Shown: piece by piece, positions 42,458 to 63,970 of the stretch
Layout of the letters: each line of letters opens with the position of its first letter
Position numbering within the stretch: position 1 is the first letter of the stretch
From: an uncultured Gammaproteobacteria bacterium
GTDB lineage: Bacteria > Patescibacteriota > Microgenomatia > PFEM01 > JAHIFH01
Length of the DNA stretch: 63,970 bases
Direction of reading: 5' to 3'
NCBI GenBank assembly: GCA_964347135.1
Contig: CAYFXA010000003.1
Coordinates: 1-63,970, forward strand
Program-made: the position numbers and the translations under genes
The notes under the pieces: generated by a model
What the model was told of the DNA's origin: nothing
Databases searched by the model: none
Seen by the model: only the letters and a program-made list of their open reading frames with translations

Positions 42458-42462
42458 ATTTA

Positions 42463-43041: not shown

Positions 43042-43083
43042 GTTTTTTCTTTAATTAATCTTTAACAACTCTATTGTAACATG

Positions 43084-43170: not shown

Positions 43171-43173
43171 TGG

Positions 43174-43259
43174 CGGAAGGAGTGGGATTCGAACCCACGT
43201 GGCCTTTTCAGACCAACGGTTTAGCAAACCGCCCCGTTTAACCACTCCGGCATCCTTCC
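43174..43259 (-). tRNA. tRNA-Ser (anticodon GCT)
   Basis: GGAAGGA...GCGGT TTGCTAA ACCGT, a long variable arm, then GTGGG TTCGAAT CCCAC TCCTTCC G. The next 3 nt (43171-43173) read CCA and abut the next tRNA. Confidence 0.9.
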
Positions 43260-43944: not shown

Positions 43945-43987
43945 TAAATCAATTCTAGCAAAAAGACACCCGAAGGTGTCTCTCTTG

Positions 43988-44350: not shown

Positions 44351-44787
44351 TTGTCTTTTAAAGCTTGTTCAATTTCTCTTTCTAAAGCCTTTCTTTTTTT
44401 CGCTTCTCTTTTATCGTATTTCTTTTTACCTCTTGCTAAAGCGATTTCTAGCTTGATTTTCCGAGCCTTAGTATAGCACGAAACAGGTATAACAGTCAAC
44501 TTTTTTTCCTTGGTTTGTTGGGTTAGTTTAAGAAGCTCATTTTTATGTAAAAGGAGTTTCCGACTGCGCTTTGGATCATAATCTCGATTGTCAGCAAAAG
44601 GGTAGGGGTTAATAAAGGCATTAAGTAGCCAGGCTTCGTTATCAATAATTTTAACAAAGCTCTCACTTAAACTCATTTTTCCTGCTTTAACCGACTTGAC
44701 CTCTGCCCCTGTTAAAACAATTCCTGCCTCAAACTTCTCCAGAAGATGATAGTCGTATCTTGCCCGCCGATTAATAATCTTTTTCAT
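44341..44787 (-). CDS. smpB: SsrA-binding protein
   Basis: 148 aa. NRRARYDY, GIVLTGAEVKS and the basic C-terminal tail fit SmpB. The stop overlaps the tmRNA 5' end by 10 nt. Confidence 0.95.
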   Translation of the reverse strand: MKKIINRRARYDYHLLEKFEAGIVLTGAEVKSVKAGKMSLSESFVKIIDNEAWLLNAFINPYPFADNRDYDPKRSRKLLLHKNELLKLTQQTKEKKLTVIPVSCYTKARKIKLEIALARGKKKYDKREAKKRKALEREIEQALKDKGM

Positions 44788-49402: not shown

Positions 49403-49409
49403 GGATTTG

Positions 49410-49757
49410 ATGAAAAAAGTCCTTTTATCATTTTTGTTAATTTTCCTCTTTACTTCCCCATTAACCTCAAACGCCCTCGCTGCTGAATGCGTTCCTACTG
49501 CCATTGGTTGCATTGATATCAGTGGCCCCAGTGAGTTTGTTGATACCATCCTAAGATTAGCCATTGGTTTGGCTGGAGGAATTGCTATGCTTCTAATTAT
49601 TTTTGGTGGGATTCAAATCTTAACCTCAGCCGGCAATCCTGAAAGGGTTAAGGCAGGAAAAGAAATGATTACTTCTGCCATCGCCGGTTTACTTTTAATT
49701 ATTTTTTCTGTCTTTATTTTGCGTATAATTGGAGTGCAAATACTAGATATTTTTTAA
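49410..49757 (+). CDS. T4SS pilin-like protein 1 (VirB2/TrbC-type)
   Basis: It has the ATG at 49410 and a signal peptide (MKKVLLSFLLIFLFTSPLTSNALA). The layout is helix-loop-helix, LAGGIAMLLIIFGGIQILTSAGNPERVKAGKEMITSAIAGLLLIIFS. Confidence 0.65.
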   Translation: MKKVLLSFLLIFLFTSPLTSNALAAECVPTAIGCIDISGPSEFVDTILRLAIGLAGGIAMLLIIFGGIQILTSAGNPERVKAGKEMITSAIAGLLLIIFSVFILRIIGVQILDIF

Positions 49758-49758
49758 A

Positions 49759-50070
49759 ATGAAAAAACTAGCTTTAGATCTTCCCGGTGGATACAGCATT
49801 TCGGAACCAGAGGGGTTCAAGTTTGTTGGAGGAAATATTGGTGAAATTATCAACGCTTTGGTTCCCTATATTTTTGCTTTAGCTGGCTTAGTTTTGCTTC
49901 TTATCCTCATCTGGGGCGGCTTTGAAATGATGACTTCTGCTGGTGACCCGAAGAAAATGGAATCGGCCAAAGGAAAGCTAACCAATGCCGTGGCTGGCTT
50001 CATTATTATCTTTGTTGCTTTTTGGCTGGTCCAAATTTTGGAAGTTATTTTCGGGTTGACGATTTTTTAG
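49759..50070 (+). CDS. T4SS pilin-like protein 2
   Basis: 103 aa. LAGLVLLLILIWGGFEMMTSAGDPKKMESAKGKLTNAVAGFIIIFVAFW. The 3' end overlaps convergent uppS by 26 nt. Confidence 0.65.
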   Translation: MKKLALDLPGGYSISEPEGFKFVGGNIGEIINALVPYIFALAGLVLLLILIWGGFEMMTSAGDPKKMESAKGKLTNAVAGFIIIFVAFWLVQILEVIFGLTIF

Positions 50071-50818
50071 AAGGTTTTTTATATACTTCGAATTCGCCTC
50101 CGCCAAAACGCCGAGTCCTTTTTTGATACTCAATAATGGCTTTATCCAGTTTATGAGGAGTGAAAGATGGCCAAAGAGTTTCGGTAAAATAAAGTTCGCT
50201 GTAGGACATCTGCCACAAAAGAAAATTGGAAAGCCTTTTTTCTCCTCCGGTGCGAATAATTAAATCAGGATCAGGCTCACCATTGGTGTAAAGAAAGGTG
50301 CCAAACATTCTTTCATTAATTTTTTCTGGAGGAATTTCTTGATCAATGATTTGCTTGATTGCCATTAAAATCTCGTCCCGACCCCCATAGTTCAAAGCCA
50401 CATTCACTTTTAATCTTTCGTGTTTTATAACAATGGCAAGCATCTCTTTGATGGCCTTAACCACTTTTCGAGGAAAAGCTTGAAAATCACCCAAAACCGC
50501 TAGTTTGACACCTTTTTCTTTGTACTCTTCTTTCCTTTCCTCAACCGCCCTAGTTAAAAGTTTAAATAATCCTTCCACTTCTTTTTTTGCCCTTTTCTTC
50601 CAGTTCTCGGTTGATAAAGCGTAAATCGTTAAAGTTTCCACCCCTAAATCCAAACAGTGCTCAACAATCTTAACCAAAGCCTTAACACCTGCCTCATGAC
50701 CCTGCATCGGCGTCAATCCTTTTTTAGCTGCCCAACGACGATTACCATCCATGATAATGCCAATATGCTTGGGAATTTTTTTCTTATCGAGTTTTGGTCT
50801 AGAAGTTTTCCTCGCCAT
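50045..50818 (-). CDS. uppS: isoprenyl transferase (undecaprenyl-diphosphate synthase family)
   Basis: 257 aa. Motifs are GIIMDGNRRWA, ALSTENW and RTGGEKRLSNFLLWQ. Confidence 0.9.
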   Translation of the reverse strand: MARKTSRPKLDKKKIPKHIGIIMDGNRRWAAKKGLTPMQGHEAGVKALVKIVEHCLDLGVETLTIYALSTENWKKRAKKEVEGLFKLLTRAVEERKEEYKEKGVKLAVLGDFQAFPRKVVKAIKEMLAIVIKHERLKVNVALNYGGRDEILMAIKQIIDQEIPPEKINERMFGTFLYTNGEPDPDLIIRTGGEKRLSNFLLWQMSYSELYFTETLWPSFTPHKLDKAIIEYQKRTRRFGGGEFEVYKKPSKKSSTRK

Positions 50819-50839
50819 GTCGAACGTATTGTACCACGC

Positions 50840-51901
50840 CTAACTCTCTCGCTCAATCATAAAGTCAGCCATATTCGAAAGAGTGTCCACCAATTTAGGA
50901 TTTTGAGTGATTTGAGGAATAAATTTCTTTCCTTTTTCAACCAACCTTCTTGCCATTTTTTGGGAATAATCTAAAGCGCCAGTTTCCTGAGTAATCTTCC
51001 TTACCCTATTAAGTTCTCTTTTGGTCAAGTCTTTGTTCCCATAGGCATTCCTAATGAATTTCTTATCCTCGCCTTTTGCTAATTCCAAAGCTTTAAGATG
51101 AAGAAGGGTAATTTTGTTCTCTTTAACATCACTGCCTATTGGTTTTCCCAAAGTTTTCTCATCGGAAAAAAGTCCCAATTCATCATCTCGAATCTGAAAG
51201 GCAATCCCTACTGGTAAACCATATTTTTCGATTTTTTTAACCTCTTTCTCGTCTGCTCCAGCAAATAAGGCTCCATACTGTAAGGGGCCAGTAATAGTGT
51301 AGTTAGCAGCTTTATAATGATGAACCCTTAAAACATCCTCTTCTGATAGTTTATCCTCGAGTTCATAAGTAAGATCAAGAGCCTGCCCATAAGCAGTGCT
51401 TAATATTTGGTTACTAAAAGCTCTTAATACTCTTGTCTTCACCTTATCACTAAAATCAGAATCGCTCAAAAGAAGATAAGAAAGGGCAAAACCAATATCT
51501 CCCATATCCATTGCCATACTAAGACCGTAGTGATCTCCTTCTCCTTTTTTATATCGTTTCTTATGAAAGTTCTCGTACTGAACATGAATAGTTGGCATTT
51601 TTCTTCTAAGAATATCTCTATCCATAATGTCGTCATGAATCAAAATCCAGGTATGCGTAATCTCAACCATTAAGGAAGCTTTTAAAATCGCTTTTCCGTT
51701 CTTGCTATTAAAGCATTCATAACCTAGTTTAGTTAAACTCCCCCGAATGTTCTTTCCTCCCATATACTTGCGGTAAATTCGCATCATTTCTGCGGTTATT
51801 GGCGAAATCTTGGCCGCCTCTTTTTTTTGGGTTTTGAAAAAAGAATCCAAAATTGGTTCTGTTTTCTTAATATAGTCTTCAAGATAAGCCTTGGCTTGCA
51901 T
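50840..51901 (-). CDS. trans-polyprenyl diphosphate synthase (FPP/GGPP synthase family)
   Basis: Start moved to the ATG at 51901 (MQAKAYLEDY). The first Asp-rich motif is LIHDDIMD and the second is QIRDDELG. Confidence 0.85.
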   Translation of the reverse strand: MQAKAYLEDYIKKTEPILDSFFKTQKKEAAKISPITAEMMRIYRKYMGGKNIRGSLTKLGYECFNSKNGKAILKASLMVEITHTWILIHDDIMDRDILRRKMPTIHVQYENFHKKRYKKGEGDHYGLSMAMDMGDIGFALSYLLLSDSDFSDKVKTRVLRAFSNQILSTAYGQALDLTYELEDKLSEEDVLRVHHYKAANYTITGPLQYGALFAGADEKEVKKIEKYGLPVGIAFQIRDDELGLFSDEKTLGKPIGSDVKENKITLLHLKALELAKGEDKKFIRNAYGNKDLTKRELNRVRKITQETGALDYSQKMARRLVEKGKKFIPQITQNPKLVDTLSNMADFMIERES

Positions 51902-51941
51902 CGAAAAGAGTATAGCGGAAACTCTTCTAAGTTGCAAAAAG

Positions 51942-51971
51942 TTGACAGAGGGAATTTGATATTGATAGACT
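51942..51971 (+). promoter_or_regulatory. sigma70 promoter TTGACA-18-TAGACT, 7 nt upstream of the pilin-3 ATG
   Basis: TTGACAGAGGGAATTTGATATTGATAGACTGAATTTGATG. There is no room for an SD. Confidence 0.55.
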
Positions 51972-51978
51972 GAATTTG

Positions 51979-52305
51979 ATGCAAAAATTGGCCTTCAATA
52001 TTGGCGAAGCGCTTTTTGGAGAACACTCCGGTTTAACACCTTCAATGACTTTGGGCAGCATTATTTCCAATGTCCTGCCAAACATCTATATCTTGGCGGG
52101 GGTGATTCTCTTTTTTTTCCTGATTGGCGGAGGGCTAATGTTCATTTTTAGTGCTGGTCAAGAAAACCCGGAAGGAGCAGCCCAAGGGAAAAAAGCGATT
52201 ACGGGTGCTTTAATTGGTTTCTTGATTATTTTTGCTAGTTATTGGATAATCCAAATAATAGAGTTCGTTACCGGAGTTAATATTTTCGAACCCGGAGGAT
52301 TTTAA
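51979..52305 (+). CDS. T4SS pilin-like protein 3
   Basis: It has the ATG at 51979. LAGVILFFFLIGGGLMFIFSAGQENPEGAAQGKKAITGALIGFLIIFASYW. Confidence 0.65.
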   Translation: MQKLAFNIGEALFGEHSGLTPSMTLGSIISNVLPNIYILAGVILFFFLIGGGLMFIFSAGQENPEGAAQGKKAITGALIGFLIIFASYWIIQIIEFVTGVNIFEPGGF

Positions 52306-52309
52306 TAAA

Positions 52310-52666
52310 ATGCTTGATATTTTTGGCACCATTAGAAATCCTTTAGAAATCATTAATCCTGAGAGACATTATGGTGGCATCACTCAAGCTGAAGGGCGAG
52401 GGTTAATAGATTTTTTAAACAACGTTGTCCGTCTTTTAATTGTGGTTGGCGGTTTGTTCGCTTTCTTTAATCTCATCATCGCTGGATACGGGTTTTTAAG
52501 TGCTGGTGATGATCCCAAAAAAATGGCAGCGGCATGGGCAAGAATCTGGCAATCATTGATGGGGCTTTTGTTTATTGTTGGTGCTTTTGTTTTAGCAGGA
52601 ATTTTTGGTTATCTTTTGTTTGGAGACGCCAGAGCGATCCTTTATCCTAAAATCTACGGACCATGA
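52310..52666 (+). CDS. T4SS pilin-like protein 4
   Basis: 118 aa. VGGLFAFFNLIIAGYGFLSAGDDPKKMAAAWARIWQSLMGLLFIVGAF. Confidence 0.6.
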   Translation: MLDIFGTIRNPLEIINPERHYGGITQAEGRGLIDFLNNVVRLLIVVGGLFAFFNLIIAGYGFLSAGDDPKKMAAAWARIWQSLMGLLFIVGAFVLAGIFGYLLFGDARAILYPKIYGP

Positions 52667-53052
52667 TAGAAAAAGTCTTTGCTGCTGAACTTCCCCTTGG
52701 CCCTATTGGCGGGGGAAAAGAAGAAGGTTTTGGGCCTTTTGGCTATCTTTGGGCGTTTTCTGACGTTGGCGAAGCTGCCAGACAATTTACCTCAATCCTT
52801 TCTAAAATCATTGGGGTGATGACCGTGATTGCCGGCATCTGGTTCTTCTTTATTCTGATGATTGGGGCTTTTGGCTATCTTTCGGCCGGAGGCGACTCAG
52901 AAAAAATAAAGAGCGCTACCCAAAGAATTGGTAATGGCTTAACTGGTTTGGTGGTAATTGTTTTAGCCTACGCTTTTATTTCCCTTATTGGCAGATTGCT
53001 GGGAATTGATATTCTTAATCCCCAGGATGTTATTGATTTATTAGGTCCGTAA
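52663..53052 (+). CDS. T4SS pilin-like protein 5
   Basis: 129 aa with an ATGA overlap to pilin-4. IAGIWFFFILMIGAFGYLSAGGDSEKIKSATQRIGNGLTGLVVIVLAY. Confidence 0.6.
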   Translation: MIEKVFAAELPLGPIGGGKEEGFGPFGYLWAFSDVGEAARQFTSILSKIIGVMTVIAGIWFFFILMIGAFGYLSAGGDSEKIKSATQRIGNGLTGLVVIVLAYAFISLIGRLLGIDILNPQDVIDLLGP

Positions 53053-53059
53053 AGATATC

Positions 53060-53428
53060 ATGATAAAAATCCTTTTAGCTCAAGGAGAGCCACCAGGAAT
53101 CTACAACCCTGCCTTAGATCCTTTTATTGGCAGAGGCGAAGGGGTAACCATTCTTAACACCTTTTTAAGTAATTTCATTAGCATTCTTTTAATCGTTGGC
53201 GTTATTGTTGCTTTTATCTTTCTCGTTATTGGTGCGATTCAATGGATGACCGCTGGTAATGATAAAGCAGCAATGGAATCTGCCAGAGGCAAAGTTATTA
53301 GTGCTATCATTGGCTTGGTTGTTCTCTTCACCGTCTTTGCTATAATAAAAATAATTGGTGCCATCTTTGGCATCGAACAATTAAAGCAATTGTTTTTTGA
53401 TATATCGCCATACTTAATTTCTGATTAG
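53060..53428 (+). CDS. T4SS pilin-like protein 6
   Basis: 122 aa. VGVIVAFIFLVIGAIQWMTAGNDKAAMESARGKVISAIIGLVVLFTVF. Confidence 0.6.
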   Translation: MIKILLAQGEPPGIYNPALDPFIGRGEGVTILNTFLSNFISILLIVGVIVAFIFLVIGAIQWMTAGNDKAAMESARGKVISAIIGLVVLFTVFAIIKIIGAIFGIEQLKQLFFDISPYLISD

Positions 53429-53452
53429 AAAAAGAAGAAAGGGGGTGAAAAG

Positions 53453-53830
53453 GTGAAGAAATTAAAAGAATTAACAAGCTACCTGATGCTTGCTCCGGTT
53501 CTGGCTGCAGAAGATAAAATTATAATCAAACCAGGACCAGAATTTGCAGGTTTGGAGAATATTACTGTTCCAGCCATTATTTCAGCGGCGATTAAATTTA
53601 TTTTGGTTGTTGCTGCTTTAGTCTCCTTCGTTTTCTTAGTAATTGGTGGAATCAGATGGATCACTTCCGCTGGTGACAAAGAAGGAACAGCTAAGGCTCA
53701 AGGGACGATTACAGCGGCTCTGATTGGATTGGTGATTGTTTTTGCTGCTTGGGCAATAATCCGTTTATTGCAAACATTCTTTGGATTGGGACCAATTTTC
53801 GAATTCGAAATTCCAGTAATTGGACAGTAG
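53453..53830 (+). CDS. T4SS pilin-like protein 7
   Basis: 125 aa with a GTG start and an SD (GGGGGTG) 5 nt upstream. It has a signal-like N-terminus. AALVSFVFLVIGGIRWITSAGDKEGTAKAQGTITAALIGLVIVFAAW. Confidence 0.65.
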   Translation: MKKLKELTSYLMLAPVLAAEDKIIIKPGPEFAGLENITVPAIISAAIKFILVVAALVSFVFLVIGGIRWITSAGDKEGTAKAQGTITAALIGLVIVFAAWAIIRLLQTFFGLGPIFEFEIPVIGQ

Positions 53831-53867
53831 AGTAGATTTGATCACTTTAATTAATTAAACCGAACAG

Positions 53868-53899
53868 ACACCTACTCTTGACGGTAGGTGTTTGCTGTT
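53868..53899 (+). terminator. rho-independent terminator-like hairpin after pilin-7
   Basis: ACACCTAC-tcttgacg-GTAGGTGT (8-bp stem) is followed by TTGCTGTTG. Confidence 0.5.
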
Positions 53900-53914
53900 G
53901 TAAAGTGAAAATTA

Positions 53915-54199
53915 ATGGTTGATGACGTTCACGAAATCAAAGATATTGTTGTTATCATTGAAAATATCTTTAGCATTATCATTCGCATTGCCGGAGTCGC
54001 TGCTTTCATCATGTTTATTGTTGGCGGTTTTAGATATTTAACTGCGGGCGGTGACCCTAAAGCGGCTGAATCAGCCAGAGGAACACTAACATACGCCATT
54101 CTTGGTTTGGTTTTGATTATTGCTGCTTGGTTTATTCTTAGATTCATTTCAGAATTTACTGGGGTAACCCAAATTCTTGAGTTTGAATTTAGTCCATAA
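53915..54199 (+). CDS. T4SS pilin-like protein 8
   Basis: 94 aa. IAGVAAFIMFIVGGFRYLTAGGDPKAAESARGTLTYAILGLVLIIAAW. The stop overlaps the next ATG by 1 nt. Confidence 0.65.
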   Translation: MVDDVHEIKDIVVIIENIFSIIIRIAGVAAFIMFIVGGFRYLTAGGDPKAAESARGTLTYAILGLVLIIAAWFILRFISEFTGVTQILEFEFSP

Positions 54200-57100
54200 T
54201 GAAAAAACTGCCCTTTTTACTTTCTTTTTTAACCATTTTCTTTTTAGCAATTATTTATCCATCCCAAACAAACGCCCAGGGATGTGGCGATATCTTTGGC
54301 TCAAATGTAGCAACAAATTGGTATCGCGAGAATCTTGAATTCATTAGAAATCAAGCCAATTGTTCCGGACCCATTCCCATTGAAGTCATTATCACCCCTG
54401 CTGAGAGAGACAACCACCAGCTTCTTTTAGACCTTGAAAAAAATTTAAGAGAACTAAATTTTGTTCCCACCTGGCGACCTTGGGGCAACGGCATGCCTCG
54501 CGGAAGTGAACTTCAAGCTTGGATTGATGCTGCCAGCGTTTTGTCCATTGGCCAATTCCAGCTTTTTAATGAACCTAACAACTGCTATTTTGGCTGCTTT
54601 TCAGGCTCAACACCAGACCCTGTTGCTGATGCCCAGGCAGCCCTTGTTTTTCTTGAGGCTAGTGAACAAGGAAAAATTAAAATTCCTCTTGCCCTAATGC
54701 CATTGTCACCCCGAACACCCAACTATGGCTCTTTTTTATCCGAGCAAAATTATTGGACCCAATTTAACAACGCCTGTGGAGGTTGTGTTAAAGATTTTGA
54801 TTATATTGGCTTAAATGTCTATCCCCTAACTTCACCAGGGGCAAATCCTAATGCGAATGTTGACAAATTCATTAGTGATTTTAGTGCCCAACTTAACTTT
54901 TTTGCCAGTCTGGGTGTTAACACGGCTACCACCAGATTTGTTATCACTGAGGCTGGTCTGGATCCGGGCATGTATGAAGGCAATTTTGAGCAAAGAGTGA
55001 GAGACACCATCGCCTTTGCTCAAGCCCTTGAAGCCAGAGTTAAAGCCGACCCTTCTCTTTTCCTTAATGTTGACCAAATTACTTTCTTCATAATGGACGA
55101 AAACACCAACAAACAATATTTAATTTATCGTCAGTGTGATGATGCCGGAAATTGTGAATGGGTGGTTGACGAATATAAAGTCTATAACATCAATGTCCCT
55201 GGTGTTCCTTTTATTCCTGGAGAATTCAGTCAGCTTGATTGCAATCCTGATTTGACTGGCGAACGAGACTCTCGCCCTTATTACAACATTCCTCAAGAGC
55301 GCGCTTGTGACCTTTGTAACCTTACGGGTCTATTCTGTTCTTCCTGCGCCACTAGTTTTGCGGTTCATGACACCGTAACCTACAAACGTGGTGCCGGAGC
55401 CGAAGAGCCACCCCATTGTGTTGAGAAATCTTGGGAAGGAACCGTTACCATTGACCCAACCAACACCAAAATTCCTTTTGTGGGAAAAAAGGGAGAGGAA
55501 AGTGAAGAAAAATATTTGGCGGATTATTTTGAGGGAACAAATGAGTACTACGAAAACTATTCCCATTATTGGAAAGATTGGATCAATTATGCAGGAGTTT
55601 GGCGAAAGCTATCGCCAATGAGCTATCAAAATATTTTGAAAAAACAGATGGTTGAAAGAGCGGAAAAATCCCTTGCTTTGGGTAATCAACCTCAAGTAGA
55701 AGGTATTCACGATTATCAACTTAATTACATTGGCCGACTCTGTTGGGATGCTCCTTTTTGGATTGAAGTGATTAATACTGTTCTTGGGAAAATTGCTGGG
55801 GCTTTCGGGCTTACCATACCTGATGTAACCAATTTCTGCCTTTTCGAAGATTCAGAAAATCACCCAGAGCAGTTTGCTTTAATTCAAGTATATAAGTATA
55901 CGATTCGCGACCTTCCTTTTATCAACGACCGGTACAATCAGGGAGTTACGGCAACTCTTTCCGAGCTTGAAGAACATCTCCCTCCTGACCCCTTCGAAGA
56001 AAACTACCCTGAAAAATGGGACGAGTGGAAAAAATCAGACGGAGGTAAATGGTATAAACTCTGGCAAGTTGTGCCCATGTTTTCTCATGAAGATACTCCG
56101 GGACAAATTCTTCCCTACCTAGGCTATAAATCAAAAGATGAGCCAAAATTCATCCCACCAGAAGTGGAAAAGGTTCCTCACGTTGCTCGGCTCTATGAAG
56201 CTACTCAAGAAGTACAAACGATGCTAACACCATTTTATCAAGAAGATTTGCTGTTCACCCAAAACAAAGCAAAATCAACCCTTGCTTCGTCAAAAACTTT
56301 TCAGCCAACTACCATTAATCCCACTGAAAAAAATATTTTAGGGGAAAAAGCGCTTTTAGCCCAAGGAGAAGCGTGCCAAGAATGCCCTGAGCTTTCCATC
56401 GCCAATCCTGGTATTTCTAACGGCATGGTTCATTACACTTATTTACTCTGCCATAGTTGTCCTGGTCATGGGGTTATTGGTGATGTTTTTGTTGGTCCTT
56501 GCGGTGGAGTCAGCCAAATGAAAAATATTCCCCCTCCTTGTTTTTCAACCAATCATCCGGCGATTGCTCCACCAGTACCCATCAGTTGTCGAGGAACAGC
56601 CAATATTTGCATTGCTTTTAAGTGTGACTCCTCCGAAGCTTGCCCAGGTTGTTGGGGTCAGTGGCAATCAGAGAGCTGCCAAGTCACAGTTGACGAAGGT
56701 TGTAATATTACTGACACTACTTGTGGAGCTGTTGCGGTTGAACCACCTGTTTGTGGTATCTCTGGACCAGCACCTGTTATGGACTGTGAACAGGCAGCAA
56801 TTACTGACCCAAATGAAAAAGACGATCTCTGTTGTGATCCAATTACCATTACTCTTAATGCGGTTGATGCTTTTGAAAATCCTGAATACGAAAAATGTCG
56901 AGCCGAAGGAATCACCTGTCAACCGCCAGGTTGTATTCCTGGAGTCAGCTGTATTAGTTGTGATAATCCTTGTGAAGAAAAAGTTGAAAAAGCTGTTAGT
57001 CGGCGCTTTGGCATTAACCTTCTTCACCCATATCTCACTGATATTTGGGAACAAACTGGGTTAGCGGAAACCGCTGGCTTGTTTAATTTTTTCCGACCTG

Positions 57101-57294
57101 AAAGTGAGAAAATTCCCAAATTTAGAGAGATTGACGCCAGTAGTGAAATTATTTACACCCAAACAGGTTTTGAGTCAATCGAACCCTCAGTTGGTAAGTT
57201 CTATTTTAATTATCTTGGGGGTGTCCAATTAGCTAAAGAGTGGGTAACTAGAGCCTTAATGCCTTTGAAAAGTAGTATTGAAATCATCCATTAG
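54199..57294 (+). CDS. large secreted protein: N-terminal clan GH-A glycosidase-like domain, central domain of unknown function, Cys-rich C-terminal region
   Basis: 1031 aa with a signal/TM helix (LPFLLSFLTIFFLAIIY). LFNEPN (E125, 54571-54573) and VITEAGLD (E251) have the spacing expected for the acid/base and nucleophile of a GH5-like barrel. Residues ~725-935 contain 33 Cys. Confidence 0.55.
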   Translation: MKKLPFLLSFLTIFFLAIIYPSQTNAQGCGDIFGSNVATNWYRENLEFIRNQANCSGPIPIEVIITPAERDNHQLLLDLEKNLRELNFVPTWRPWGNGMPRGSELQAWIDAASVLSIGQFQLFNEPNNCYFGCFSGSTPDPVADAQAALVFLEASEQGKIKIPLALMPLSPRTPNYGSFLSEQNYWTQFNNACGGCVKDFDYIGLNVYPLTSPGANPNANVDKFISDFSAQLNFFASLGVNTATTRFVITEAGLDPGMYEGNFEQRVRDTIAFAQALEARVKADPSLFLNVDQITFFIMDENTNKQYLIYRQCDDAGNCEWVVDEYKVYNINVPGVPFIPGEFSQLDCNPDLTGERDSRPYYNIPQERACDLCNLTGLFCSSCATSFAVHDTVTYKRGAGAEEPPHCVEKSWEGTVTIDPTNTKIPFVGKKGEESEEKYLADYFEGTNEYYENYSHYWKDWINYAGVWRKLSPMSYQNILKKQMVERAEKSLALGNQPQVEGIHDYQLNYIGRLCWDAPFWIEVINTVLGKIAGAFGLTIPDVTNFCLFEDSENHPEQFALIQVYKYTIRDLPFINDRYNQGVTATLSELEEHLPPDPFEENYPEKWDEWKKSDGGKWYKLWQVVPMFSHEDTPGQILPYLGYKSKDEPKFIPPEVEKVPHVARLYEATQEVQTMLTPFYQEDLLFTQNKAKSTLASSKTFQPTTINPTEKNILGEKALLAQGEACQECPELSIANPGISNGMVHYTYLLCHSCPGHGVIGDVFVGPCGGVSQMKNIPPPCFSTNHPAIAPPVPISCRGTANICIAFKCDSSEACPGCWGQWQSESCQVTVDEGCNITDTTCGAVAVEPPVCGISGPAPVMDCEQAAITDPNEKDDLCCDPITITLNAVDAFENPEYEKCRAEGITCQPPGCIPGVSCISCDNPCEEKVEKAVSRRFGINLLHPYLTDIWEQTGLAETAGLFNFFRPESEKIPKFREIDASSEIIYTQTGFESIEPSVGKFYFNYLGGVQLAKEWVTRALMPLKSSIEIIH

Positions 57295-57323: not shown

Positions 57324-58874
57324 ATGCTGTCCAAATTCTTAGCTAAAAGAAAAATTGCTCTAATTATTCTTTTCTTTTTTTTAACTTCCATTTTGTTGTC
57401 TAAACCAAGCCAGGCTTTCTACACCCCGAATTCAACCTACCAGTTTCAGTTTGAACAAGCGGTTTATAAAAGTCCTGAAGACATGAATCTCCAAAGTTTT
57501 GTTTATGAAACTTTAAAGGCAGTAATGGGGTCAATAATGTCCACAATTTTTGGTTGTGTCACTTGTGCGCCAGGAGAAGGTGAAAGAGGAGCAATCGGAA
57601 CAATCAGCAGTTTCATTGCCTTTCTTTACTCTAGCCCTCCGGCTTCGGGAGTTGAGTACTTGGCGAGTATAGGAAGAAGATTAAATGTTGCTCAACCAAC
57701 TTATGCTCAAGAGGAAAGTCCAGGCTTTGGAAAAATGAGACCTTACCTTGATATTTGGAAAAAGTTCCGAGATTTAAGTTATGTTTTCTTTGTTCTCATT
57801 CTAATCTTCATGGGTTTCGCTATTATGTTTAGGGTTAAAATTGACCCCCAAACGGTTATTACTCTCCAATCAGCCTTGCCAAAAGTGGTTCTTGCTTTAA
57901 TCTTAATCACCTTCTCTTATGCCATTGTAGGATTACTAATTGATTTTATGTACGTGGCTGCCAATCTTATCCTGTTTACTTTTGGCGATCTAATAGGAAT
58001 TTTTGATTGGGCTGAAAAGATTGGCTATGACATGGCGATTACCAGTGATTTCAAAGCTTTCGGGGTTATCATCTTAGCTGGGCTTTTCCCCTCATTGGTG
58101 ATTATTATTTTCTTTTTACTTCTAATGATTGTCCCTTCTGTTGTTGGTGGATTTATTGGCGCAATCGTAGCAGGAGTACCAGGAATATTGGCAATGGGCG
58201 CTATTGATTTTTTCATTCTTGTTCTCTTGGCAATCGTCTTTTTAATTGCTCTTATCCGCGTTTTTTGGTCTCTTTTGAAAGCTTACGTAATGGTAATTAT
58301 AAACTTAATTTTTGCTCCTTTCATAATTCTAATTGGGGTTTTGCCAGGAAGTAACACCATCGGCACATGGTTTAGAAATTTAATCGCTAACTTGGCGGTT
58401 TTTCCAGCAACTTTAATGATGATTCTTCTTTCCTTTTACCTTGTTTATTATGCTTTGAAGGGCGTCATTTTTGATCGAATACTTAGTTTACTAACAGGGG
58501 AAATTAGCAGTTTTGAAGAATTTATGTATCTAATTGGAGATTCCATTGGCAACGCTCCAGAAATGACAATTCTCTGCTTTGTTAGTTTAGGAATTCTTCT
58601 CATGGCACCCAAAGTATCAGATATGATAAAATCCTTTGTTGCCGGTAGACCTTTTGAAAACGGCACGGCCCTTGGTCAAGCACTAGGACCAATACCAATG
58701 GTTGCCCCTTACGGAGTTGGCTACGGGACGAGACGGGCGCAAACATGGGCGGGTAAGCTTGTGGCGAGAACACCTGAAGATACACGGCTAAGAACAATTG
58801 CTGAGAAAATAGAATCGATGACAAGTTATGTCCGTCAATTAGCAGAAATTCAAAAATTTACGCCGCCGCCATAA
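57324..58874 (+). CDS. polytopic membrane protein, VirB6/TrbL-like by position and topology
   Basis: 516 aa with many long hydrophobic segments between residues ~150 and 430. It lies directly downstream of the pilins and upstream of the VirB3/VirB4-like genes. No sequence motif is available to me. Confidence 0.45.
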   Translation: MLSKFLAKRKIALIILFFFLTSILLSKPSQAFYTPNSTYQFQFEQAVYKSPEDMNLQSFVYETLKAVMGSIMSTIFGCVTCAPGEGERGAIGTISSFIAFLYSSPPASGVEYLASIGRRLNVAQPTYAQEESPGFGKMRPYLDIWKKFRDLSYVFFVLILIFMGFAIMFRVKIDPQTVITLQSALPKVVLALILITFSYAIVGLLIDFMYVAANLILFTFGDLIGIFDWAEKIGYDMAITSDFKAFGVIILAGLFPSLVIIIFFLLLMIVPSVVGGFIGAIVAGVPGILAMGAIDFFILVLLAIVFLIALIRVFWSLLKAYVMVIINLIFAPFIILIGVLPGSNTIGTWFRNLIANLAVFPATLMMILLSFYLVYYALKGVIFDRILSLLTGEISSFEEFMYLIGDSIGNAPEMTILCFVSLGILLMAPKVSDMIKSFVAGRPFENGTALGQALGPIPMVAPYGVGYGTRRAQTWAGKLVARTPEDTRLRTIAEKIESMTSYVRQLAEIQKFTPPP

Positions 58875-58879: not shown

Positions 58880-59065
58880 GTGGAAAAAAAAGAAGACTTT
58901 AGTCCAGAAGAAGCCATAAAAGAATCCCTAAAACCAGCAAAAGGAGCAGCTAAATTTGGAATAGGTTATTTCGCTAACAAAGTTGGAGGAAAACCTGCCT
59001 CAAGTGAGGCCGGCAGAGTCTTTAAAAAAATTGTTGACGTTTTAGGATGGTCTTCTGAAAAATAG
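58880..59065 (+). CDS. small hypothetical protein
   Basis: 61 aa, GTG start 5 nt after the upstream stop, Lys/Gly-rich. Coding status is uncertain. Confidence 0.3.
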   Translation: MEKKEDFSPEEAIKESLKPAKGAAKFGIGYFANKVGGKPASSEAGRVFKKIVDVLGWSSEK

Positions 59066-59070: not shown

Positions 59071-60735
59071 TCACTCCACTTCTCCAAAAGGGGCCCCACT
59101 CGCTACTTGAGCGGCCTTTGCTTCGTTTGCCTCTTCCCCACCCCATCTCTTTTTAAGTTTCTCTTTTGAAAAATCTTGTTTAGAAGCCGCTGCTGCTCCT
59201 TTAACAAGAAGTTCCGATATTCTTAATTTTTCGGCATCAGCCATCTTATTTAAATCCCCCCATGTTCTATCAGGAAAACGGCTGTATTCGCCTTCGGTAA
59301 TCAAATAAGGAGCAACAACAATATTAAAAGCTTTGTTCATTTCTCTCCAAGTAACAGGGTTGGCCATAAGGCTAGCATCCCACTTTTCTCTAGTCAAAGC
59401 CTCAAAAAGACCACTAATTCCACCTTCACTTTTTCTGCCAGCAAAGAAAATTCGGAGACAATAATCATACCAGGCGTACTTCGGCATTTTTCCCCAGGGC
59501 AATTCTCCTAGTTTTTTTTCCTCATTCCACCACAATTCCCAAAAGGAACGAATGTTTTGACAGCTAACATCATCCTCTGGTTCATAAGGAGTTCGGAGAT
59601 AGTGTAAGAAATCAACAGCTAATCGGGAGCTTGTGTCTTTAACGGTCTTATCAGGACCATGTAAGTGACCAGCACCTGCTTCCAATTCTCTTCTTAATTT
59701 GGGCCAGAAAATCTTTCTCCTGTCATCGGCAACAGGAAAACCGCCTAATTTCTCTTTTCCATCAACCTCTCCTCTGGCGAAGGTAGTGGCAATACCCCAT
59801 AAACGAAAGATTCGCCAAGCCAATTGTTCCGCTGCTTCATCTCCACCCAATTTTTCAAGAACAAAATCTCGCATTTCTTCTAATTTATCTTCAGGTGGGT
59901 CAGCTACAAAAAGATTTTTCAAACCTAGTTGCCATTGTCGTATCCATTCTCTATCTTCTTGGCTTATCATGTTTCTCAACCAAGGTCTGTTATTCAGTTC
60001 TTGTTCAAACCGTTCTTCATCAAAACTCATTGCCAAAGCGGTAAACCAGCGCATTCCCTTATCAATTTTGTCTCCAAAAGCAGGTTCTCCCTCTTTTGTT
60101 AACGGAGCCTTAAACAAAGTTCCCCAAACATATTTTGAATCCAGCAAAGTATAATCTTTATATTTCAAAAATAAGGCGGCTATAGAAGGTAAATCATCAT
60201 CTACACCCTCAAAAACATCCAGGGCTGTATTAAGATCATTTCGGGCATCGAACTCTTCTCTCAACCTTTTTACTTCTTCGAAAAAAGCTTCTTGCTCAAC
60301 ACTTTTTGGAGAAATATCCTCAAGTTCCCATTTTTTTTCGTCCAAAACACCCCTCGTTTGGTCAACAATAATGTAACTGAACCGACCTCCTAAACCCTCC
60401 AATCCCCCTAACAACCTTCTGAAATGAAATCTCATATCTTCGAGTGTTTTTGCTCTTTCCATATTTTCAACTTGTTTCATTCCATAGCCTCGAACAAAAA
60501 AAGGCCTTTCTCCCTCTGGCCAGAGCGGAGCAGGCTCTTCTTCGTCAGGGCCCTGTCCTCCCATAATTGGTCTTTCTTCAACCATTTTTCTTATTCTTGC
60601 TTCTTGTTCTTCTTTTGCCATTTCCGCTGCCCTTTCTACTTCTAGTTCATCGCGTTCTTCTGCGCTTAGCGGTTTTGGTCTTTCTTCAACCATGTTTTCT
60701 TCGGGCATGTTTGGTGTAATTTTCCTTTCAATCAA
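59071..60735 (-). CDS. hypothetical soluble Glu/Arg/Trp-rich protein, no recognisable family
   Basis: 554 aa with no hydrophobic helix and an acidic N-terminus (EERDELEVERAAEMAKEEQEARIRKMVEE). It is Trp-rich (WELWWNEEKKLGELPWGKMPKYAWYDY). It is the only minus-strand gene between the VirB6-like and PrgI-like genes. Confidence 0.6.
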   Translation of the reverse strand: MIERKITPNMPEENMVEERPKPLSAEERDELEVERAAEMAKEEQEARIRKMVEERPIMGGQGPDEEEPAPLWPEGERPFFVRGYGMKQVENMERAKTLEDMRFHFRRLLGGLEGLGGRFSYIIVDQTRGVLDEKKWELEDISPKSVEQEAFFEEVKRLREEFDARNDLNTALDVFEGVDDDLPSIAALFLKYKDYTLLDSKYVWGTLFKAPLTKEGEPAFGDKIDKGMRWFTALAMSFDEERFEQELNNRPWLRNMISQEDREWIRQWQLGLKNLFVADPPEDKLEEMRDFVLEKLGGDEAAEQLAWRIFRLWGIATTFARGEVDGKEKLGGFPVADDRRKIFWPKLRRELEAGAGHLHGPDKTVKDTSSRLAVDFLHYLRTPYEPEDDVSCQNIRSFWELWWNEEKKLGELPWGKMPKYAWYDYCLRIFFAGRKSEGGISGLFEALTREKWDASLMANPVTWREMNKAFNIVVAPYLITEGEYSRFPDRTWGDLNKMADAEKLRISELLVKGAAAASKQDFSKEKLKKRWGGEEANEAKAAQVASGAPFGEVE

Positions 60736-60848
60736 ATTATACTATACCACTTTAAATAATCAAAGAATTGCTCTATTTTGCTTGTAATTTGACCTATTAT
60801 GAGCTGGTTGAATTGAAAAACACCAGTGTCTACAATAAAAAAGTAACC

Positions 60849-61841
60849 ATGGAACAACATCCTGTCCCACAACACATTTCTTCTTATCAATTCCGTTTGA
60901 TCGGTGACATGACCATTAAGCAGTTCGGCATGTTGGCGAGTGGCTGCATTATTGGTTTAATCCTTTATGCCTCACCCCTTGCTTCTCTTGTTAAATGGCC
61001 CCTGATTGTTCTCTCAATTGCCCTGGGTGTTGCCCTTGCTTTTGTTCCGGTTCAAGAAAGACCATTGGATCAATGGATTATGGCTTTTGTCAAAGCCATT
61101 TTCTCACCCACTCAATTTGCTTGGAAAAAACAACCTAAGAAATTAGAAATGTTCAAAACTACTCCTAAGAAAAAATTGTTTCGAAAAGCACCAACACCGC
61201 CGCCAGACAGAAAACAACTGACCGAATATCTTGCCACTCTGCCCACAGAACCCAAAAGCACCCTTGATCAGCAAGAAGAAAATTTTGTTAAAAAAGCGGT
61301 CAATATGTTTCAGTTAGCCAAAATGCCTTCGCCAAAACCAGTACCCAGTATCCCTCCAATGCCAACTCAACCAGTTCAGCCCGTTCCTCGAAAACCAAAA
61401 CCAACCTACAAACCAAAGGTTTCTCCTCCAGTAAAACCAATTACTCCTCCAAAGAAAAAACGAGTGGTTTTACCTGAAGAACCAGGTCGTCCCAAAAAGC
61501 CAAAGGTTAAAGCCAAGTTCAGTCCGGAACTGCCTTTTCCTGAACGACCTTCTCAACCTAACACTCTGGTGGGCATGGTTCTTGACCCGCAAGGCAAAAT
61601 CATTGAAGGAGCGATAATTGAAATCAGGGACAGTCAAGGTATTCCCGTAAGAGCCTTAAAAACCAATAAATTAGGCCAATTTCGAAGCGTTACCCCTTTG
61701 GAAGATGGTCAGTACGAAATCGAAATCGAAAAAGAAACTTATTTATTTGATATTCTCAAAATTAAATTAACCGGCGCGGTAGTTGAACCTTTAGAAATCC
61801 GCGCCAAAGGAAAAGCCAGTGGACCTGCCCAAAACGCTTGA
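60849..61841 (+). CDS. PrgI/VirB3-like membrane protein fused to a Pro/Lys-rich linker and a carboxypeptidase-regulatory-like beta-sandwich
   Basis: It has the ATG at 60849. MEQHPVPQHISSYQFRLIGDMTIKQFGMLASGCIIGLILY matches the PrgI-family start (VP..I....k.iG.lT.kQF plus 2 TM). The linker is PKPVPSIPPMPTQPVQPVPRKPKP... The C-terminal part is GMVLDPQGKIIEGAIIEIRDSQG..KTNKLGQF..LEDGQYEIEI. Confidence 0.65.
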   Translation: MEQHPVPQHISSYQFRLIGDMTIKQFGMLASGCIIGLILYASPLASLVKWPLIVLSIALGVALAFVPVQERPLDQWIMAFVKAIFSPTQFAWKKQPKKLEMFKTTPKKKLFRKAPTPPPDRKQLTEYLATLPTEPKSTLDQQEENFVKKAVNMFQLAKMPSPKPVPSIPPMPTQPVQPVPRKPKPTYKPKVSPPVKPITPPKKKRVVLPEEPGRPKKPKVKAKFSPELPFPERPSQPNTLVGMVLDPQGKIIEGAIIEIRDSQGIPVRALKTNKLGQFRSVTPLEDGQYEIEIEKETYLFDILKIKLTGAVVEPLEIRAKGKASGPAQNA

Positions 61842-62697
61842 CCCAACCAAAATACCTATTCGCGCTTCTACCCAAGAGCATTTGGATATCGAAGATATCC
61901 AAGATGGTATTGTCATTCTTAAAGATGGCAGTTGCTGTTTGGTTATTGCCACAACAGCGATTAATTTTGGCTTGCTTTCAGAAAAAGAACAAGAAGCAAC
62001 CATCTATGCCTACGCTGGCCTTCTAAACTCCCTTACTTTTTCCATTCAAATCGTTCTTCGTTCTCAAAGAAAAGACATTTCTGGCTACGTCAAACTGGTT
62101 AGGCAAGCCGAGGAAAAAGAAACCAAAAAAGAAATCAAGGCTCAAATTCAAAAATATCGTCAATTTATTGAGGAAACCGTGGCTAAAAATGAAGTCCTTG
62201 ATAAAAAATTCTACCTTGTTATTCCCATGAGCGCCTTGGAGCTCGGAGTTAAACAAGCGCTTACCTCTGCTTTTGCCAGGAAAAAACTACCCTTTGACAA
62301 AGACTACATTTTACAAAAAGCAAAAACCAATCTTTATCCCAAGCGAGACCACGTTCTGCGCCAAGTAGCTCGTTTGGGGCTCAAAGGAAAACAACTTAAC
62401 ACTCAAGAACTAATCCAGCTTTTCTTTAATGTTTACAACCCTGAGGTTAAAGGCCAGCAAATAACCACCGCAGGCCAATATCAAAGACCAATGGTTGAAC
62501 CAGCCATGGCCAAAGCAGAAGAGGTTCCAACTATCCCAACCCAACCAAGTCCGATTGGTAAAGAAAAAAATCAAGAAACAGAGGTAAGAAAACCTTCCCA
62601 ATTTCCAAAAGAAATTGAAGTAGAAACCAAACCAGCTAAAGAAGAATCAATTCAAAATCAAATTGATGGCTTAATCAAAAAAGCGGTTAATAAATGA
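61819..62697 (+). CDS. hypothetical protein resembling the N-terminal (non-ATPase) domain of Gram-positive VirB4/ORF16-type proteins
   Basis: 292 aa with a GTG start overlapping the upstream gene by 23 nt. IEDIQDGIVILKDGSCCLVIATTAINFGLLSEKEQEATIYAYAGLLNSLTFSIQIVLRSQ follows the pattern I recall for VirB4 N-domains. No Walker motifs. Confidence 0.4.
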   Translation: MDLPKTLDPTKIPIRASTQEHLDIEDIQDGIVILKDGSCCLVIATTAINFGLLSEKEQEATIYAYAGLLNSLTFSIQIVLRSQRKDISGYVKLVRQAEEKETKKEIKAQIQKYRQFIEETVAKNEVLDKKFYLVIPMSALELGVKQALTSAFARKKLPFDKDYILQKAKTNLYPKRDHVLRQVARLGLKGKQLNTQELIQLFFNVYNPEVKGQQITTAGQYQRPMVEPAMAKAEEVPTIPTQPSPIGKEKNQETEVRKPSQFPKEIEVETKPAKEESIQNQIDGLIKKAVNK

Positions 62698-63970
62698 AAC
62701 TACCAATTATTGGCAAAAAGGTTTCAAAAGAAAAAAAAGAAGAAAAGGCAAAAGCTCCTTCCCCTCAAGTAGCGGCTACTGAAGGCGTTACTAGGCCAGT
62801 GGTTGACCCTCTTTCCCAACTTAGTCAGGGAATGGTTTCGGTCCAAGATGTGATTGCTCCTGGCGCTCTTGAAGTTGATTTTGACCACCTTAAAATTGGC
62901 AATAAATACTTTCGAACCTTGTTTGTTGCTGGTTATCCCCGCTTTGTTGCTGCTAACTGGCTGGCTTCCTTAATTAACTTCGACCATTCACTTGATGTAG
63001 CGATGTATATCTACCCTGTTGAAGGAAAATCTGTTCTTGATGAATTACGCCGAAAAATTGCGGAGATGGAAGCGGAAATCCAAACCGATATCCAGCGAGG
63101 GAAAATCGTTGACCCTGCCACTCAAGCCAAACTCGAAGACGCCCGTAATCTCCAGGAACAGTTAGTTAAAGGAGCGGAGCGCTTTTTCCAATTTGGTCTT
63201 TACATCACCATCCCCGCTGATTCTCTTGAAGAACTTAACCAAGTTTCTAAAGAAGTTGAATCTGCCCTTGGTGCTTTGCTAATTGTTTCCAAACACGCCA
63301 CTCTTCAAATGGAAGATGGCTTTAAAGCTACCATTCCCACCATGGTTGACCGCTTAATGATTACTCGCAATATGGACACCACCTCTTTGGCCACCACCTT
63401 TCCTTTTACTTCATCAGAATTAACCGCCAATGAAGGCATTATGTACGGCATCAATGACCACAATGACTCTTTAGTTGTTTTTGACCGTTTTACTTTGGAA
63501 AACGCCAATTCAGTTATTTTTGGTAAGTCGGGTGGAGGTAAATCTTACATGGTCAAACTCGAAGCTCTTCGTTCTCTTTTGTTTGGCACGGAAGTAATTA
63601 TTATTGACCCAGAAAAAGAATATGAAGCCTTAGCCAAAGTCGTGGGGGGTGAATACATTACCTTTGGTTTTGACTCCCCTTCCAAAATTAATCCTTTTGA
63701 TTTATCCGCGGTTTACGAGGAAGGTGAGAATGAACTGGGACTAAAAATCCTTTCCCTTCACTCTTTGTTTAAAGTAATTATGGGTAAACTCACGGCTACT
63801 GAAGAAGCAGTTCTTGACCGGGCTTTAATCTTAACCTACAGAATGAAAGGAATTACCCCTGACCCCGCTACTCAAAAAAAAGAGCCACCCTTAATGGAAG
63901 ATTTGTACAAAGCCTTGCGAGGAATGGAAGAACCAGAAGCAACCACTCTTGCTGACCGAATTGAAAAATT
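62694..63970 (+). CDS. VirB4/TrbE-like T4SS ATPase, N-terminal ~425 aa (continues past right edge)
   Basis: Not in the ORF track because it is open at the edge. An ATGA overlap joins it to the upstream stop. MKLPIIGKK...DVIAPGALEVDFDHLKIGNKYFRTLFVAGYPRFV...Walker A VIFGKSGGGKSY...IIIDPEKEY. Confidence 0.8.
   Translation, partial: MKLPIIGKKVSKEKKEEKAKAPSPQVAATEGVTRPVVDPLSQLSQGMVSVQDVIAPGALEVDFDHLKIGNKYFRTLFVAGYPRFVAANWLASLINFDHSLDVAMYIYPVEGKSVLDELRRKIAEMEAEIQTDIQRGKIVDPATQAKLEDARNLQEQLVKGAERFFQFGLYITIPADSLEELNQVSKEVESALGALLIVSKHATLQMEDGFKATIPTMVDRLMITRNMDTTSLATTFPFTSSELTANEGIMYGINDHNDSLVVFDRFTLENANSVIFGKSGGGKSYMVKLEALRSLLFGTEVIIIDPEKEYEALAKVVGGEYITFGFDSPSKINPFDLSAVYEEGENELGLKILSLHSLFKVIMGKLTATEEAVLDRALILTYRMKGITPDPATQKKEPPLMEDLYKALRGMEEPEATTLADRIEK

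Follow-up and report, generated by a model that had tools for sequence, protein, structure and literature searches.

The 63,970-nucleotide stretch of DNA analysed here (positions 1 to 63,970 of contig CAYFXA010000003.1, hereafter the window) carries a type IV secretion system (T4SS) locus in which a gene for a 1031-residue modular protein directly follows an array of pilin genes. From sequence, predicted fold and synteny we infer that this protein is a T4SS accessory or tip-type component in which a core of new fold is joined to exchangeable heads that are glycosidases or binding modules. In the reading that we prefer, the protein would be a Sec-exported adaptor associated with the pilus or its stalk, analogous to VirB5 and displaying heads directed at host glycans; we give this reading a probability of about 45%. 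An earlier reading made from the letters alone (the sequence-only reading) had described a barrel of glycoside hydrolase clan A (GH-A) fused to a Cys-rich C-terminal region. Both regions were found, but the conserved core had been missed, and the head and the Cys-rich insert turned out to be optional. Its suggestion that the protein could form the tip of the filament or serve as its adhesin is the one that we favour.

The gene lies at 54199..57294 on the plus strand, as had been proposed and as the listing of open reading frames (ORFs) bears out. Residues 4-22 of its product are hydrophobic and are followed by a cleavage site between TNA and QG. This Sec-type signal peptide, in keeping with the protein having been called secreted, is the only hydrophobic segment, and all the homologs begin with MKK, a hydrophobic stretch and an A-x-A-like site. 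A motif and hydrophobicity scan of the 1031 residues revealed neither an LPXTG motif (LP.[TSA]G) nor a C-terminal wall or membrane anchor, a feature by which the Gram-positive T4SS surface adhesins (PrgB-like) differ from this protein. Together these properties indicate a protein that is predicted to be exported by Sec and to be soluble once cleaved. The order of its parts is signal peptide, GH-A-like head, middle core, disordered linker, Cys-rich insert and C-terminal core:

54199..57294, plus strand: gene of the 1031-residue secreted modular protein (ORF call), its ATG overlapping the stop codon of pilin gene 8
54199..54276, plus strand: Sec-type signal peptide, residues 1-26 (from MKK to TNA, cleaved before QG)
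54277..55203, plus strand: clan GH-A-like (beta/alpha)8 barrel, residues 27-335 (AlphaFold2 model, Foldseek, profile against the PDB, conservation)
54568..54576, plus strand: N124-E125-P126, candidate acid/base motif where strand beta-4 ends (conservation; aligned to WNEPN of PslG)
54949..54951, plus strand: E251, candidate nucleophile in VITEAG at the end of strand beta-7 (conservation; aligned to the nucleophile Glu of PslG)
55204..56268, plus strand: conserved middle core domain, residues 336-690 (alignment, model)
56236..56367, plus strand: predicted disordered linker, residues ~680-723 (predicted local distance difference test, pLDDT, below 50)
56368..56778, plus strand: variable Cys-rich and beta-rich insert, residues ~724-860 (absent from minimal members)
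56779..57291, plus strand: conserved C-terminal core domain, residues 861-1031 (alignment, model)

A first homolog search gave 72 homologs, all of them unnamed or 'hypothetical' and mostly from metagenome-assembled genomes (MAGs) of Patescibacteria, and 67 of these could be aligned. The best-conserved parts of the alignment were observed to be residues ~336-690 and 861-1031 and not the N-terminus, and the family is thus defined, at the level of sequence, by a conserved core of ~525 residues. The middle core domain contains a Cys cluster (C348, C370, C373 and C383), a long beta-hairpin and an alpha/beta body, with the signature motifs IPFVGKK..KYLADYFEGTNEYY and VPHVARLYE. The C-terminal core domain has the near-invariant cysteines C863, C878, C900 and C925 and the motifs DDLCC, HPYL..IW, GFFNIFRP and FYF.YLGG.Q.AKEW. 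Residues 336-1031 were modelled from 65 sequences with a pLDDT of 84 and a predicted template modelling score (pTM) of 0.78, and 344 residues reach at least 90.

This confidently modelled body has no relative in Pfam, in the PDB sequences or by Foldseek. The 65-sequence profile gave no match in PDB sequences, and Pfam and PHROGs contained no relative of the core either. Foldseek of the 336-1031 model against the PDB returned only small fragments of fn3/Ig-like beta-sandwiches (best E 0.11), and against a viral library the best match (E 6e-3, template modelling (TM) score 0.09) was not a structural match. We put forward only tentatively, as a doubtful proposition, that the core is an unrecognised T4SS pilus subunit of new fold, a tool-holder at the tip or stalk whose exchangeable heads would set which host surface is attached or penetrated.

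The core family is small, and all of its finds are from genomes of Microgenomatia type, an uncultivated lineage. An indexed profile search gave 99 clusters, Shapirobacteria and Beckwithbacteria being among their names, and a scan of 185,579 species representatives gave 17 core loci, with no Saccharibacteria name among the core matches. Three of the 17 are titled Shapirobacteria and four Patescibacteria, and the rest are titled 'uncultured Gammaproteobacteria'. The ten loci in question lie in MAG records titled 'uncultured Gammaproteobacteria/Pseudomonadales bacterium' and have a pilin/T4SS locus of the Patescibacteria type. Their taxonomy is probably a placeholder or mistaken, since one of the records, OZ246397.1, is a chromosome of 615,331 bp. 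A divergent clade was found by way of its GH-A head. Its core is ~25% identical and homologous by hhalign (probability 98.3%, E 1.2e-14, 388 columns), and an indexed search with its profile gave four proteins only. Six proteins of this clade have an extra Cys-rich C-terminal extension of ~150 residues past the core. A reading of these extensions as lytic transglycosylases (..WIEESGA.., ..IEGP..GPMQITTG..) found nothing in Pfam or PDB sequences and was not used as evidence.

The modules around the core were observed to change from member to member. A tally by region shows that residues 27-335 and ~691-860 are present, absent or replaced among the members, and 12 of the 67 (570-630 residues) consist of the signal peptide and the two core regions without head or insert; the GH-A head and the insert are therefore optional. 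The other heads among the 67 are of the GH-A type in about 30 members, Ig-like (CarboxypepD_reg/Big_1) in 6 and of unknown kind in 19, the last falling into three types. The GH-A-type heads comprise at least four unrelated subtypes. The type under study is found in 22 members; besides it there are one PF11790/PF00150 type (WNEQD, ITEFGW), one PF00150 type marked by MNEPH and GEAGY, a further PF00150 type and the head of P0072. For example, P0002 has a core 78% identical to that of the protein under study but an unrelated head of 158 residues, while P0005 is 80% identical in the head, 53% in the core and 26% in the insert. These sequence comparisons point to a mosaic evolution of the family. 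In local hhalign comparisons of the head types, made after trimming off the shared signal peptides that would otherwise contaminate them, the probabilities were uninformative for such shallow alignments, though the NE and TE motifs were aligned.

A similar design is familiar from phages, where receptor-binding proteins and tailspike depolymerases combine a conserved attachment part with exchangeable distal modules that bind or cleave polysaccharides and evolve as mosaics. The logic of a conserved part with swappable, glycan-directed modules would be the same in both. The likeness is one of analogy: the order is reversed here, with the variable module at the N-terminus, and neither the viral structure library nor PHROGs gave a match.

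The second main line of evidence is the position of the gene. The sequence-only reading had placed it in a T4SS-like pilin locus, and the neighbouring genes agree with this:

49407..50070, plus strand: pilin genes 1-2 (PF18895 T4SS_pilin, VirB2-like hairpins of two transmembrane segments)
51976..54199, plus strand: pilin genes 3-8 (PF18895), at 51976-52305, 52310-52666, 52663-53052, 53060-53428, 53453-53830 and 53915-54199
57324..58874, plus strand: 516-residue polytopic membrane protein (a signal or transmembrane segment, ~120 extracellular residues and at least six transmembrane segments)
60768..61841, plus strand: PrgI/VirB3-like protein with a C-terminal CarboxypepD_reg Ig-like domain (Pfam)
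61819..62697, plus strand: TraC-like/TrsD-like protein (PF26593 in the contig annotation and in orthologs)
62694..63970, plus strand: VirB4-type ATPase, N-terminal 425 residues with Walker A GKSGGGKS, truncated where the window ends

All eight pilins (49407-54199) match PF18895 with E values of 1e-6 to 4e-15 and each has a two-segment transmembrane hairpin. The name pilin-8 that had been given to the 94-residue ORF at 53915..54199 is therefore correct, as this ORF matches the family with E=3.8e-15 and seven other such genes precede it in the window. The VirB4 orthologs carry AAA_10/P-loop_TraG. The contig ends inside VirB4, and the gene beyond it is known from related loci only.

A search for homologs next to T4SS genes in other genomes, which had been suggested as a check, gave the same gene order in the three homolog contigs first inspected. 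By mapping with local hidden Markov models the core gene was found directly after the last pilin of the preceding array in 20 of 20 loci, and the ortholog of the 516-residue protein directly follows the core gene wherever the contig continues. PrgI-, TraC- and VirB4-like genes come downstream of it in the related loci examined. The two divergent-clade loci have the same arrangement, and in several loci the start of the core gene overlaps or abuts the stop of the last pilin. The 516-residue protein is a candidate VirB6 analogue by its position and topology only.

A different role for a core of this kind would be that of a structural scaffold spanning the wall, in which it would belong to the channel or stalk crossing the cell envelope, replacing missing parts of VirB8, VirB9 or VirB10 type and bearing the heads as secondary decorations. 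The core was found, highly conserved, in every locus examined and is modelled confidently as a large multi-domain body, and Microgenomatia are reported to have few homologues of VirB8 and VirB6 (PMC12102498), all of which would speak for such a scaffold. The mature protein, however, lacks a membrane anchor and matches neither the NTF2-like fold of VirB8 nor another T4SS fold, and head swapping and mosaicism are typical of surface-exposed proteins that contact a partner and not of buried scaffolds. We regard the scaffold as unlikely.

The head of the protein was assigned from its fold, its conserved residues and its profile matches. The sequence-only reading had pointed to LFNEPN and VITEAGLD, with the spacing of the acid/base and nucleophile glutamates of clan GH-A. 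The motifs start at residues 122 and 248, and the distance between the two glutamates, E125 and E251, is 126 residues as claimed. Structure prediction for the N-terminal domain, proposed as a check, did yield a triose-phosphate isomerase (TIM) barrel, and both candidate catalytic glutamates are conserved in the homologs, which upholds the claim of a GH-A-type barrel. The AlphaFold2 model of the head was built from 14 members of its subfamily (pLDDT 74, pTM 0.71) and has alternating strands and helices with seven beta/alpha units modelled. E125 is located just past strand 119-121 and E251 inside strand 246-252. These would be strands 4 and 7 of the barrel if the G-x-N segment at 33-38, which is not modelled as a strand, is counted as beta-1.

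Foldseek of this model against the PDB gave top matches that are all TIM barrels (probability 0.9-1.0). The glycosidases among them are GH5 beta-mannanases, GH53, GH30, GH1 and GH128, with E values of 1e-4 to 5e-3. The model thus makes the TIM-barrel fold of the head appear secure, but the clan is not secure from structure alone.

What settles the clan is sequence, beginning with conservation. N124-E125 and E251-A-G are invariant within the alignment of the head subfamily, and a diverged alignment of 15 heads has G57, R93, N124, E125, Y208, E251 and G253 as invariant residues. An exhaustive HMMER search of 1.84 billion representatives gave 360 relatives of the head at E<=1e-3, and conservation was measured on 135 representatives with mutual identities below 50%. 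The six top columns were, in order, Y208 (100%), E251 (98.5%), G253, E125 (98%), N124 (97%) and R93 (96%). R93 and Y208 are each located at the end of a strand in the model (88-94 and 202-207). An Arg on an early strand and a Tyr on beta-6 are typical of the clan in GH5 and related families. The conserved Arg, Asn-Glu, Tyr and Glu columns match the set of clan GH-A and form an active-site pattern.

The profile searches agree with this pattern. A profile of 26 head sequences matched only clan GH-A enzymes of the PDB at E<0.1, namely PslG (4.5e-5), GH39 beta-xylosidases (7e-4 to 1e-3), GH17 (1e-3), GH128 (0.02) and GH5 (0.02). A shallower profile of 14 sequences had given PDB matches at E~0.1 that suggested a relation to FtsY, and this was dropped after the deeper profile gave consistent GH-A matches. 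PslG of Pseudomonas aeruginosa, a GH39-type endo-hydrolase of exopolysaccharide (PDB 5bx9/4zn2), is the best match of the head family among solved structures. Its N-E-P-N and T-E-x-G motifs align with those of the head, and both are clan GH-A barrels working outside the cytoplasm, as far as can be predicted for the head. The two Glu of PslG that align with E125 and E251 are 111 residues apart, the spacing of its catalytic pair E165/E276, and the E165/E276 double mutant is catalytically inactive (PMC4928890). PslG differs in being encoded in a polysaccharide synthesis operon and in having a C-terminal beta-sandwich in place of a T4SS core, and the protein under study has no GH39 match in Pfam.

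Assignment to a particular family is not supported by these data. Only two Pfam families, PF11790 ('Glyco_hydro_cc', GH128) and PF00150 (GH5), were matched by relatives in the region of the GH-A head, and the matches are marginal: two relatives match PF11790 with 25.7 and 21.2 bits (cut-off 21) and two others PF00150 with 32.1 and 28.6 bits (cut-off 23.5). The protein under study and most of its subfamily are below the thresholds. One of the 14 subfamily members matches PF11790 with E=0.017, which does not establish GH39, GH128 or GH5 as its family. As there is no full-length match above a family threshold, the head is filed under clan GH-A only. It is probably a retaining glycosidase of an unclassified family and is predicted to be active, and by their sequences the 360 representatives effectively form a separate, unclassified GH-A family. 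This head family, of ~360 sequence clusters, is barely detected by Pfam and usually directly follows the signal peptide of large secreted proteins of 450-1800 residues, most of them without the T4SS core.

A glycosidase in this position could also be read as an assembly enzyme like VirB1, digesting glycans of the cell's own envelope so that the pilus or channel can be built. The conserved catalytic residues and the GH-A-type heads of ~30 of 67 members would suit such a role. To our knowledge of CAZy, however, clan GH-A holds no peptidoglycan hydrolases, so that a peptidoglycan hydrolase is unlikely by clan, and neither Pfam nor NCBIfam detects a peptidoglycan-hydrolase domain of VirB1 type (SLT/GH23, CHAP/NlpC, M23) in the protein. 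Related loci were moreover observed to keep separate genes for this function. A large Peptidase_M23 protein follows VirB4 in two of the three homolog contigs first inspected, one divergent-clade locus has a CHAP-type protein there, and SpoIID is encoded upstream, in related loci as in the window. The GH-A head therefore does not replace VirB1, and the idea of the sequence-only reading that it stands in for the usual T4SS wall hydrolase fails. Since 12 of 67 members are head-less and 6 have Ig-like heads, and since conservation is centred on the core, which is not enzymatic, we consider an assembly enzyme quite improbable. A glycosidase or effector that is secreted in soluble form and only shares its transcript with the pilins, serving polysaccharide feeding or released by the T4SS as Sec-dependent cargo, is slightly less probable again: its Sec signal, the lack of an anchor, the same GH-A head on many core-less proteins and the many glycoside hydrolases of Patescibacteria thought to supply fermentable sugars (PMC11665869) would fit, but in all loci examined, down to ~25% core identity, the gene invariably lies between the last pilin and the gene of the membrane protein, members without an enzyme head exist and the core is more conserved than the head.

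The adaptor that we prefer would work as follows. The core would dock onto the VirB2-like pilus or onto the neighbouring polytopic membrane protein, and the N-terminal head, probably together with the Cys-rich insert, would face outward to the surface of the partner cell. The protein would thus be an extracellular subunit of the Microgenomatia (Patescibacteria) T4SS or pilus that combines a conserved body with exchangeable heads. Here the head would be a clan GH-A glycosidase of the retaining kind, with E125 as acid/base and E251 as nucleophile, and PslG/GH39, GH128 and GH5 are its closest families. Most likely it would bind and cleave a host glycan other than peptidoglycan, such as an exopolysaccharide, a capsule or a wall polysaccharide, and this could clear or anchor the contact site for the pilus or channel.

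The role would parallel that of VirB5, which is mounted on the stalk of VirB6 and is finally located at the tip of the pilus. In the R388 system the stalk is a VirB5 pentamer on a VirB6 pentamer from which the pilus grows, and VirB5 is thought to contact the recipient (PMC9259494). Like VirB5 (TrwJ/TraC), the protein appears to be exported by Sec and soluble after cleavage, and it is encoded with pilins directly before a gene in the VirB6 position; in contrast to VirB5 it is 3-5 times larger, Cys-rich, modular and enzyme-headed. The resemblance is an analogy and not homology.

Several observations weigh against this proposal. Structures of VirB5 are present in the PDB, and its elongated alpha-helical fold was not found for the core by Foldseek against the PDB or by the profile against PDB sequences. 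No VirB6 homology of the 516-residue protein was detected with a 6-sequence profile against the PDB or by Pfam on all members, which agrees with the scarcity of VirB6 reported in Microgenomatia. For the head, the query alone gave no match in Pfam or NCBIfam, even at E<=10 in either, or in PDB sequences, the confidence of the model is only moderate with strand beta-1 not modelled, and the TM-scores of its Foldseek matches are low (0.34-0.43). Sugar epimerases and aldolases, which are TIM barrels but not glycosidases, score equally in that search, and the alignment with PslG spans only ~130 residues. Furthermore, the head is common on proteins without the core, as core segments are detectable in only 25 of 139 head-bearing proteins, and it could therefore be an enzyme that diffuses freely. 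The public sequencing runs with this locus are DNA metagenomes only.

Loci of this kind have been described before without the protein. The T4SS of the Patescibacterium Southlakia epibionticum (SEML1_0006-0019) resembles the locus in the window by a monoderm, MPF-FATA-like VirB4, PrgI, TrsD/TraC-like proteins, arrays of divergent VirB2-like pilins and the lack of a relaxase nearby, and T4SS loci with such pilin arrays are known from Patescibacteria more widely (PMC10633639, PMC12102498). The protein is not described for Southlakia epibionticum or in the survey of Patescibacteria T4SS, nor is it mentioned in a review of the group (PMC10633639, PMC12102498, PMC11665869). In Southlakia epibionticum, the one Patescibacterium tested, the T4SS is essential for epibiotic growth (PMC10633639). 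The survey of Quinonero-Coronel et al. 2025 detected no adhesins in Patescibacteria T4SS loci (PMC12102498), and the role of the T4SS in Patescibacteria is called 'completely unknown' in reviews (PMC11665869).

The protein is a concrete candidate for the missing host-contact component of these systems: it is predicted to be exported, is locked into the pilin operon, has a conserved body and varies where a host-contact surface would. A recognisable enzyme head with predictable catalytic residues makes what the machine touches approachable by experiment. If the proposal is correct, the core protein would be a determinant of host range for the T4SS and the substrate of the glycosidase head would identify the receptor glycan of the host. 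Both the GH-A-type family (~360 clusters invisible to Pfam) and the core without relatives should be useful for annotating microbial dark matter.

The Cys-rich region was described by the sequence-only reading as containing 33 Cys in residues 725-935. The count is 24, and the whole protein has 40. Cysteine nevertheless makes up 11.4% of this region, compared with 0.78% for ten further long ORFs in the window (binomial P~1e-20), and the motifs that had been quoted are present: CQECPE at 726, CHSCPGHG at 751, CPGCWGQWQSESC at 815, DDLCCDP at 875 and CISCDNPCEE at 918. C852, C863, C878, C900, C907, C921 and C925 are conserved as Cys in almost every sequence in which the position is present, and C729, C751, C781, C827 and C842 in most of the insert-bearing sequences. 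As many positions are conserved in the homologs, the Cys-rich region is not a low-complexity artefact. Variable cysteines were observed to be gained and lost in pairs (e.g. 193/196 and 797/835, r=1.0). An even Cys count, as for a protein with all its cysteines in disulfides, was found in 33 of 67 sequences, which is the chance level, and no claim is made from it. A zinc-ribbon reading of CxxC-x21-CxxC (726/729, 751/754) is unsupported, since C726 and C754 are poorly conserved. The small Ig/fn3-like Foldseek matches (E 0.1-0.3) say no more than that the Cys-rich insert resembles a beta-sandwich.

The gene is probably part of an operon with the pilins before it. The ATG overlaps the TAA of the upstream ORF (TAATG at 54197-54201) as had been noted. 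The best promoter-like site on the plus strand is located directly before pilin gene 3, and there is no convincing terminator between pilin-8 and the gene. The promoter-like site, the lack of a terminator and the overlapping stop and start indicate that the two genes would be co-transcribed, and a probable operon of pilin genes 3-8, the gene itself and that of the membrane protein would start at the site. The claim of translational coupling stands only in part. The overlap of stop and start is real, but the coupling itself is a plausible reading of it, and Shine-Dalgarno motifs are rare: at the 21 gene starts checked in the window (e.g. 49410, 51979, 60735) they are nearly absent. Because of this rarity throughout the genome, their absence here cannot be used as an argument for coupling. 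The pattern suggests frequent leaderless transcripts, or transcripts with very short leaders, in this genome. Boxes resembling a -10 element (TAGACT, TATAAT) were found within a few bases of several start codons in the window. A terminator-like hairpin (11 pairs, then TTTAATTTTT) at 57057-57081 on the plus strand is located within the 3' coding part of the gene and is probably incidental.

The remaining features of the locus are as follows:

50045-51937, minus strand: genes of UppS (undecaprenyl-diphosphate synthase, Prenyltransf) and a polyprenyl synthase, which split the pilins into 2 + 6
51942..51971, plus strand: the promoter-like site TTGACA-18-TG-TAGACT (consensus match only)
58880-59065, plus strand: 61-residue ORF directly after the gene of the 516-residue protein
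59071-60735, minus strand: highly acidic 554-residue protein with no Pfam or PHROG match

The same interruption of the pilin array was observed in related loci, sometimes with extra genes (an extracytoplasmic function (ECF) sigma factor, GcpE/LytB). Genes for 46-61 residues are located at the place of the 61-residue ORF in four related loci, and the slot of the acidic protein is filled by a minus-strand gene of 545-768 residues in every related locus inspected. A promoter match of 10/12 (TTGATT-16-TATAAT, 60763-60736) ends one base before the TTG start of the 554-residue gene, which suggests a leaderless mRNA. The PrgI/VirB3-like gene encodes a Pro/Lys-rich linker and an Ig-like tail, an unusual fusion for a VirB3-type protein, and matches to PF12666 and/or PF13620 recur on its orthologs in related loci. 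Elsewhere in the window, a tmRNA gene (tag GNKNVAPLYAVA) adjoins smpB at 43985-44787 on the minus strand, and a cluster of seven tRNA genes (4 Ser, 2 Arg and 1 Asn) was observed near them at 37854-43259 on the same strand.

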